From Escherichia phage vB_Eco_Jura: a stretch of DNA of 64,000 nucleotides. The notes under the pieces are model-generated. The model was given only the letters and a program-made list of their open reading frames with translations, did no database searches and had not been told where the DNA came from. The translations under genes were made by a program, and so were the position numbers. The DNA lies in sequence record LR999871, one strand, 5' to 3'. Below are positions 8,880 to 9,736 of the stretch, one piece after another (the first letter of the stretch is position 1; every line of letters begins with the position of its first letter).

Positions 8880-9251
8880 ATGAACCGTATTACTGAAGAA
8901 CATATTGATAGCATCATTGAAGGTGCTTACTACTTCAATATGGCTAAAGCTGTAGAGAATGAAGCAGTTCTGATTCCTGAAGACCATTTAAAAGCATTGA
9001 GTACAACTACTGTTTGTGCACTGGTTCTTTCTAATGGATTCACTATTACTGGTAAATCTGCCTGTGTTGACCCTAACACCTTCAATGAGGAGTTAGGTAA
9101 GAAATATGCTTACGAACAGGCCGTTGATAAGGTATGGGAATTGGAAGGCTATCTGCTTAAGCAAAACCTGCATGAGAAAGCTCAGAGCCAGGAAATGCTA
9201 AAAGAGTTCCTGCAAGATGACAACTGTGAAGGTGGGGGCTGTAAAATCTAA
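8880..9251 (+). CDS. small protein (123 aa), phage Gp49-type candidate
   Basis: ATG preceded by AAGGAAG. Core motif NGFTITGKSACVDPNTFNEELGKKYAYEQAVDKVWELEGYLL is one I associate with small conserved phage proteins (the N4 gp49 / Sf6 gp66 family); family assignment is from memory. Confidence 0.5.
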   Translation: MNRITEEHIDSIIEGAYYFNMAKAVENEAVLIPEDHLKALSTTTVCALVLSNGFTITGKSACVDPNTFNEELGKKYAYEQAVDKVWELEGYLLKQNLHEKAQSQEMLKEFLQDDNCEGGGCKI

Positions 9252-9736
9252 TGGAAATTAAAGTTCACTTTACTAATTACATCGGAACCAAATGTGTAAA
9301 TGGTTTCCCGATGAACAAGGCTGACTACTGCAAACTTCGTGGTTGGGATGTACCTGCTAATGAAGACCCGTTAGAAGAGGGTTACTTAGTAGAGTACCCC
9401 GATTCTAAACCTAACCATGAGCAATTCCGTGGTTATATTAGCTGGTCACCTAAAGCTGCATTTGAAGAGGCATACTGTGATGTAGACAAAGGCTGCACGT
9501 TTGGCCACGCAGTAGAGCTTATGAAATCAGGTTTTAGAATGTCCCGTAAAGGCTGGAATGGAAAAGGAATGTATATCACATTAGTATCCGGTGAAAACTG
9601 GGCTATGGATAAACATGAAAATACCATATGCATGAAACAGGATTGGCTGGGTATTAAAACCGCTGACAATGAATTTATGCCCTGGGTTCCATCTCAATCA
9701 GATGTATTAGCAGAAGATTGGGTACTAGCTCAGTAA
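9251..9736 (+). CDS. DUF2829/Tad2-like domain protein (161 aa), anti-defence candidate
   Basis: TAATG overlap with upstream stop. C-terminal half AVELMKSGFRMSRKGWNGKGMYITL...KTADNEFMPWVPSQSDVLAEDW matches the DUF2829 signature as I recall it (R-x-GW, Y, PW-x-PSQ-x-D-x-LAEDW); the N-terminal half looks like a degenerate copy (GW, GYISWSPK). Confidence 0.5.
   Translation: MEIKVHFTNYIGTKCVNGFPMNKADYCKLRGWDVPANEDPLEEGYLVEYPDSKPNHEQFRGYISWSPKAAFEEAYCDVDKGCTFGHAVELMKSGFRMSRKGWNGKGMYITLVSGENWAMDKHENTICMKQDWLGIKTADNEFMPWVPSQSDVLAEDWVLAQ

Follow-up and report, generated by a model that had tools for sequence, protein, structure and literature searches.

A Tad2-family domain joined to a widespread N-terminal module in gp49 of an N4-like phage, next to an Acb4 sponge gene

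In N4-like phages, the interval between the primase and virion RNA polymerase (vRNAP) genes raises the question of what is encoded by the small gene lying against the vRNAP gene, and whether its product acts against host defence. We examined this gene, the open reading frame (ORF) 9251-9736, in a window of 64,000 nucleotides of Escherichia phage vB_Eco_Jura (sequence record LR999871; "the window" is this whole stretch of DNA). The window is of the Enquatrovirus type, its bases 8500-10500 being 97.4-99.2% identical to those of N4, SPSP, AL25, AlfredRasser, OLB145 and PMBT57. The identical protein on record is gp49 of vB_Eco_Jura; the N4 gp49 is unnamed in GenBank and a "DUF2829 domain-containing protein" in RefSeq, and a dedicated PHROG for the two-domain form, phrog_872, is matched by gp49 over its full length (E=5.7e-67). 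Our answer, to which we give a probability of about 0.65, is that gp49 would be a Tad2 tetramer sequestering the ADP-ribose (ADPR)-type signals of Thoeris, likeliest 3'cADPR, with a dimerising accessory domain, and that it would act together with the Acb4 sponge that the overlapping upstream gene gp48 encodes. The analysis shows which family gp49 belongs to, its fold, how well its pocket is conserved, its genomic surroundings and how often the domains are fused, and we infer the oligomeric state of gp49, the identity of its ligand and the role of its N-terminal domain (N-domain).

In its C-terminal half gp49 carries a true Tad2-family domain whose ligand pocket is conserved, and the agreement goes well beyond coincidence. 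The Pfam model PF11195 'Tad2-like' aligns to residues 83-159 over profile positions 2-72 of 73 with 84.4 bits (E=8.2e-24; the curated cut-off is 25 bits), and the signature motifs quoted in an earlier note, which had assigned this half to the DUF2829/Tad2 family, are found as S-R-K-G-W at residues 98-102 and MPWVPSQSDVLAEDW at residues 143-157. With phmmer against the PDB, gp49 matches ModTad2 (9eib, 8v3e) and SPO1 Tad2 (8sme, 8wje) with E values of about 1e-15 and, more weakly, HgmTad2/AcrIIA7 and SptTad2, the C-terminal domain having about 40-45% identity with the Tad2 sponges of SPO1 and Myroides, whose structures are solved. The same note had proposed a comparison of the predicted structure with Tad2 structures, and its outcome agrees. 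The AlphaFold2 (AF2) monomer model, built on 35 homologues, has a pLDDT (predicted local distance difference test) of 89.3 and a predicted template-modelling score (pTM) of 0.73. In its C-terminal half an N-terminal helix (84-92) precedes an antiparallel sheet with short loop helices (strands 97-99, 108-112, 132-136, 142-144 and 157-159; helix 149-153), which is the order of the Tad2 fold. All 24 Foldseek matches in the PDB at E<=1e-3 are Tad2-family structures, each with probability 1.0, and nothing significant was found there outside Tad2 structures. The template-modelling score on the target reaches 0.70-0.87 for the SPO1 and Myroides Tad2 proteins and 0.58-0.64 for HgmTad2/AcrIIA7 and SptTad2.

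The pocket was compared with that of SPO1 Tad2 (Gp34.65; PDB 8SME/8SMF/8SMG), the founding member of the Tad2/DUF2829 family, in which W25, N26, I63, T65, D67, H71, W73, S76, T78 and D79 contact 1''-3' gcADPR or ordered waters (Yirmiya et al.). Eight of these ten residues are identical in the HMMER alignment, gp49 having W102, N103, I135, T137, D139, W145, S148 and D151 where SPO1 Tad2 has W25, N26, I63, T65, D67, W73, S76 and D79; the two changes are S150 for T78, which is conservative, and M143 for H71, a water-mediated contact in SPO1. Across 35 homologues that have both domains, the most distant at 46% identity, no exchange is seen at W102, N103, T137, W145 or S148, and Q149 and D151 are almost unchanging. 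Such a pocket in a genuine Tad2 domain therefore makes a candidate anti-defence sponge the right reading of gp49, as first suggested. The two proteins share the same fold with 45% identity over 80 aligned residues, a GWNGKG loop, a W-x-PSQ-x-D-x-LAEDW helix and a short beta2-beta3 insertion. Unlike SPO1 Tad2, gp49 has an additional 80-residue N-terminal domain, its host is E. coli rather than Bacillus, and it is known here from its sequence and a model. The beta2-beta3 segment of gp49 (from "MYITLV" to "WLGIKT") is about 19 residues long, shorter than that of SPO1 Tad2, and gp49 is therefore without the long insertion through which cGG and cGAMP are bound by HgmTad2 and SptTad2. HgmTad2/AcrIIA7 (PDB 8KBI-8KBM, 9KZR) resembles gp49 in being a Tad2 with a non-Tad2 N-terminal extension, functionally tolerated in Hgm; however, that extension is helical and unrelated to the gp49 N-domain, and the second pocket (cGG, cGAMP) formed by its long insertion is absent in gp49.

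In regard to the ligand, we compared gp49 with the Tad2 proteins whose sequences and phenotypes are given in Table S2 of Hadary et al. 2025. The gp49 C-terminal domain scores 63.2 bits against MoTad2 (ModTad2), 61.3 against SPO1 Tad2, 56.3 against Tad2_83 and 55.6 against Tad2_82. ModTad2 (8V3E, 9EIB), which binds His-ADPR and cUMP, is thus an equal-best sequence match (E=8e-16) with the same fold; it differs from gp49 in having PSVSD for PSQSD, in being single-domain and in not inhibiting type I Thoeris. At this motif, S-Q-[T/A]-D is present in all six tested inhibitors of type I Thoeris (SPO1, Hgm, Tad2_70, 71, 82 and 83), and the three screened inhibitors of type II only carry S-[V/I/S]-[S/G]-D (MoTad2 SVSD, Tad2_68 SIGD, Tad2_76 SSSD). 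The SQSD of gp49 favours 3'cADPR (1''-3' gcADPR), the type I Thoeris signal, and this is probably its ligand, although the call is a soft one.

The N-terminal half had been taken for a degenerate internal duplicate of the Tad2 domain, and this did not survive comparison of the halves. Between them hhalign gives a probability of 0.1-0.3% (E 0.2-0.36) and BLASTP a 14-residue match alone (E=0.044), the order of secondary-structure elements in the AF2 model differs, and in the homologue alignment the N-terminal half is conserved more strongly than many parts of the C-terminal half. The N-domain is modelled with its own confident fold (pLDDT 91.7), and 18 N-domain sequences share 13 invariant positions in the pattern IGTK…PM…Y…RGW…P…E…GYLVEY…GYISWSPK…F…AY. 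No Pfam or NCBIfam model matches the N-domain (in NCBIfam there is none for gp48 or gp49 either), a sequence search of the PDB with its profile gave zero matches at E values up to 10, and no solved sponge is like it in sequence or fold. The N-domain does align with residues 1-67 of gp68 of Pectobacterium phage CB1 (hhalign probability 96.6%, E=5.9e-10, 30% identity over 67 columns), and in BFVD it has a structural match to a protein of Yersinia phage TG1 carrying a ryanodine receptor (RyR) domain (E=9e-5). CB1 gp68 is RyR Tad, and on this profile comparison its N-terminal domain and that of gp49 belong to the same family. The RyR Tad N-domain, which was assayed alone and against a single defence system, was inactive against type I Thoeris and is a strand-swapped dimer in the crystal (Fedorova et al. 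2026); through this homology the module's sole structural and functional information points to dimerisation. RyR Tad of phage vB_PatP_CB1 also resembles gp49 in its location, the same N4-like hotspot between primase and vRNAP, and in its layout of N-module followed by a gcADPR-binding domain (predicted for gp49). In contrast, its C-terminal sponge has an all-helical fold like the ryanodine receptor Repeat12 and not the Tad2 fold, and it forms a dimer where a tetramer is predicted for gp49.

In 1.84 billion representatives, searched exhaustively with its profile, the N-domain turned up in 3,018 clusters (50% identity, E<=1e-3), and it occurs in 125 sequenced phage records; a word-indexed search with the 80-residue N-domain alone had returned 5 proteins only, a sensitivity artefact. 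When the best 150 N-domain proteins were scanned with Pfam, the partners were Tad2-like (46), PF21825 (43), PF13876 (14) and the Acb2/Tad1 hairpin (4), with single cases of WDGH (PF25311) and of HNH plus AP2; RyR Tad is a further partner, and five of the 150 were essentially stand-alone. PF13876 is Acb4, a CBASS sponge (Chang et al.), and PF21825 is Sequestin, a 3'cADPR sponge discovered through its fusion to Tad2 and Acb4 (Tal et al. 2025). The order of domains varies, with Tad2 before the N-domain in P0177, PF13876 before it in P0222, and the three-part arrangements N-domain-PF21825-PF13876 in P0240 and PF13876-N-domain-PF21825 in P0229. As judged from these matches, the N-domain is a widespread and promiscuous companion of five known sponge families. 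In about a quarter of the best 150 proteins the N- or C-terminal partner region has no Pfam match, and by the fusion logic behind the discovery of Sequestin such regions are candidates for new sponge or anti-defence domains. In P0237 (354 amino acids) HNH_3 and AP2 domains, typical of homing endonucleases, stand between the N-domain at the front and a Tad2 domain behind, as if an endonuclease gene had entered the linker between the two or were being read through from it.

The form represented by gp49 is accordingly not a tandem Tad2 repeat, as the earlier note had it, but the note's further expectation that it differs from described Tad2 proteins stands in part: gp49 is unlike the characterised single-domain Tad2 proteins, and the N-domain is absent from all Tad2 proteins of the 2025 specificity screen (Hadary et al.). 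We considered whether the two-domain form might be rare and rejected this, as 1,620 clusters (90% identity) match full-length gp49, the best 120 listed being all two-domain by length and coverage, and the original table of Tad2 homologues has 102 occurrences of the motif SWSPK, which corresponds to at least about 100 two-domain proteins there.

Two other identities of the N-domain were tried and set aside. Lockin, a beta protein of elongated shape that assembles into hexamers, is reported to be missing from phages that have been sequenced in full, and the N-domain is present in the phage records counted above; for the OB fold of the phage L Dec type (PDB 6E3C), no supporting sequence or structural similarity was found. 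A stand-alone N-domain ORF of 69 amino acids, ORF49 of Aeromonas phage JELG-KS1 (L003, 2498-2707), is labelled 'putative decoration protein'; the similarity to Dec is unsupported and this label is probably wrong. An N-domain match in Klebsiella phage K57alpha1.2 stands under the label 'terminase large subunit', which is doubtful.

The features of the locus are collected in Table 1. The product of gp48 matches Pfam PF13876 (E=6.8e-35), with a weak direct match to the Acb4 structure 9e4w (E=9e-4), and N4 gp48 (A0MZD7) is among the published Acb4 homologues (Chang et al. Table S3). To trigger the decoy-sensing system Panoptes, gp48 of N4 is both required and enough (Sullivan et al. 2025), and that study makes no mention of gp49 or Tad2. 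The stop codon of gp48 and the start codon of gp49 overlap (TAATG), which suggests that the two are translationally coupled, and the overlap means that the published knock-downs of N4 gp48 could have polar effects on gp49. The terminator-like hairpin upstream of gp48 suggests that gp48 and gp49 make up their own short transcription unit; a sigma-70 promoter scan upstream of gp48, of a kind that does not cover N4 middle promoters, found none on the plus strand. On the other side, gp49 does lie next to the vRNAP gene, as had been pointed out, but because the two genes are convergent and separated by the hairpin terminator their adjacency does not mean co-expression, and the vRNAP gene is a neighbour of gp49 and not a functional partner.

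Table 1. Features of the window around gp48 and gp49 (positions in the window).
Feature	Position	Strand	Remarks
gp49 coding sequence, 161 aa, N-domain + Tad2-like domain	9251..9736	+	ATG-to-TAA ORF, orthologue of N4 gp49
N-terminal module, aa 1-80, small beta-barrel + two helices, no Pfam family	9251..9490	+	
Tad2-like/DUF2829 domain, aa 82-159, predicted signal-sequestering unit	9494..9727	+	Pfam, PDB, Foldseek
gp48 orthologue, Acb4-family (PF13876) cyclic-dinucleotide sponge gene	8880..9251	+	Pfam and published lists
GC-rich hairpin with T-runs on both strands, bidirectional terminator	9745..9762	both	7 pairs, 6 GC
Terminator-like hairpin followed by T-run	8825..8854	+	12 pairs, 25 nt upstream of gp48 start
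Virion RNA polymerase gene, 3,506 aa	9771..20291	-	Right-hand hotspot boundary
Primase	2435-4582	+	
Sak4-like AAA_24 protein	4605-5396	+	
Position of single-stranded DNA-binding protein (SSB)	5442-6239	+	
gp46	6239-6796	+	
gp47	6799-7242	+	
tRNA cluster Asn-GTT, Ser-TGA, Thr-TGT, Pro-TGG	7700-8378		Between gp47 and gp48

The interval from primase to vRNAP is a published anti-signalling hotspot of N4-related phages, holding "Tad2, Tad3, Acb4, and Sequestin" (Fedorova et al. 2026), and gp49 is located within it. The view that a sponge would be unusual in an N4-like phage is thus overtaken both by this hotspot and by the RefSeq name: gp49 is an already annotated member of a known sponge family, at a locus where a gene of this kind no longer surprises. 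Sponge domains are modules that become shuffled, as in the Acb4-Tad2 fusion of Pasteurella phage Pm86 and in the Tad2-Sequestin and Acb4-Sequestin fusions (Tal et al. 2025; Fedorova et al. 2026); whereas Acb4 and Tad2, paired in both cases, are one polypeptide in Pm86, here they are adjacent overlapping genes, and the Tad2 domain is fused to the N-domain instead. Adjacent Acb4 and N-domain-Tad2 genes, in this order, are also found on JGI contig Ga0613826_000076 (L005, 4662-5468), from an unrelated phage with an SU10-type portal and a P22 NinX, which suggests that the pair is a mobile two-gene cassette. On another contig (L006) an N-domain-Tad2 gene without Acb4 stands between two ParB-like genes.

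Elsewhere in the interval, gp46 has no Pfam match, its homologues in N4-like phages are annotated as RuvC-like Holliday junction resolvases, and it is 46-48% identical to the positional gene of PEV2/LIT1 inside the Ab09 gp57-61 deletion interval containing Bes1, which is RuvC-like (Fedorova et al. 2026); judging from this similarity, gp46 may be a Bes1 orthologue. Positions 7389-7642 are a perfect tandem duplication of a 127-nucleotide unit (two copies, 100% identical), each copy holding a 26-nucleotide hairpin (GCGACTGGGGAGAGTAATCCAGTCGC on the minus strand); downstream of it the coordinates of PMBT57 and AL25 are shifted by exactly 127 nucleotides, so that these two phages appear to be single-copy for the unit. 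Within the tRNA cluster, T-arm-like repeats (8154-8186, 8253-8270) and inverted repeats (7951-8044, 8181-8293) drew no tRNA call and may be the remains of degenerated tRNAs. Between tRNA-Pro and the hairpin upstream of gp48, about 450 nucleotides are without a plus-strand ORF of at least 40 amino acids.

In the mechanism that we favour, the C-terminal domain of gp49 would assemble, by analogy with its family, into a homotetramer with pockets at the protomer interfaces, and the tetramer would sequester the ADP-ribose-derived alarm molecules produced by Toll/interleukin-1 receptor (TIR) proteins, likeliest 3'cADPR, so that the Thoeris effector would never be activated. The N-module would most likely be a dimerising or scaffolding accessory, as its homologue in the RyR Tad crystal is by strand swapping, and gp49 with the translationally coupled gp48 (Acb4) would form a two-gene anti-signalling cassette in the primase-vRNAP hotspot. 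Several observations weigh against this. The N-domain is joined to helix alpha1, which forms the tetramer interface, and might not fit the tetramer sterically (the prediction was of a monomer); moreover, the frequent stand-alone N-domain ORFs are unexplained if the N-domain merely dimerises. The motif argument for 3'cADPR is soft and rests on nine sequences, for which the order of the assay columns in Table S2 was inferred from the control rows (SPO1 Tad2, MoTad2, T4 Acb2 and Tad2_71) and not from the header. Tad2_78 is inactive though it has GWNG and SQQD, about half of the diverse Tad2 homologues blocked none of the tested systems (Hadary et al. 2025), Tad2 proteins can have separate sites for several signals, and a literature search turned up no paper in which N4 gp49, or any other N-domain-Tad2 protein, had been put to an experiment. 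As to the additional N-terminal sequence itself, it is tolerated in known cases: full-length HgmTad2 with its N-terminal extension of about 50 amino acids is active, and one Acb4-Tad2 fusion inhibits both Thoeris and CBASS.

It is also conceivable, although we consider it unlikely, that the Tad2 domain of gp49 sponges another signal instead of or besides 3'cADPR, such as His-ADPR (type II Thoeris), N7-cADPR (type IV Thoeris) or the cUMP and cCMP of Pycsar. The similarity of gp49 to ModTad2, its best single match, is as great as that to SPO1 Tad2 and itself makes the ligand call soft; Tad2 specificities are diverse, Tad2_71 inhibiting Thoeris types I, II and IV, and Pycsar and type IV Thoeris assays function in E. 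coli. However, gp49 keeps the canonical gcADPR pocket residues, its SQSD is of the kind common to the type I inhibitors and not seen in the three type-II-only binders, and it lacks the cyclic-dinucleotide insertion. A larger role for the N-module is a possibility that we hold with somewhat less doubt, namely that it is an independent anti-defence unit, a sponge or blocker for an unassayed signal, which would give gp49 two inhibitory activities, as in the Acb4-Tad2 and Acb4-Sequestin fusions. By published logic, uncharacterised domains fused to sponges tend to be sponges themselves (Tal et al. 2025), and this one is fused in either order to Tad2, Sequestin, Acb4 and the Acb2/Tad1 hairpin, is found in RyR Tad too, and occurs in stand-alone forms; its invariant aromatic and basic residues K14, Y26, R30, W32, Y49, Y62, W65 and Y75 would suit a nucleotide pocket. 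Even so, R30 and W32 are not conserved in the RyR Tad N-domain, which alone is inactive against type I Thoeris and forms a dimer interface in the crystal; the gp49 N-domain is net acidic, and the lack of any solved sponge alike in sequence or fold also speaks against such a unit. More generally, we suggest only tentatively that the N-module is itself a widespread anti-defence module, for example a sponge for an unassayed signal, an avidity-tuning adaptor, or a means of hiding sponges from decoy-sensing systems. Finally, gp49 might not be an immune antagonist at all, and could assist replication or recombination, act against CRISPR, as AcrIIA7 was once said to do, or have no function under laboratory conditions. 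It does stand at the end of a replication and recombination block (primase, Sak4-like, SSB and RuvC-like genes), AcrIIA7 is a DUF2829 protein, and many divergent Tad2 homologues are inactive; yet the anti-CRISPR activity of AcrIIA7 was not reproducible, the ligand pocket of gp49 is conserved under strong constraint, the neighbouring gp48 is a proven sponge and the region is an experimentally supported anti-signalling hotspot, all of which makes this last explanation very improbable.

Among model phages N4 is a classic, and its gp48 (Acb4) already serves as a probe for immune signalling and for decoy defences such as Panoptes. If gp49 is an active Thoeris sponge, as we favour, it would complete the anti-signalling cassette of N4 and, because the two genes look translationally coupled, its activity would bear on how gp48 knock-downs are interpreted. 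The N-module, for its part, is carried by five known families of signal sponges and has been tested once, against one system; its role would explain a recurrent sponge design and, should it prove to be an inhibitor, it would represent a new anti-defence family.

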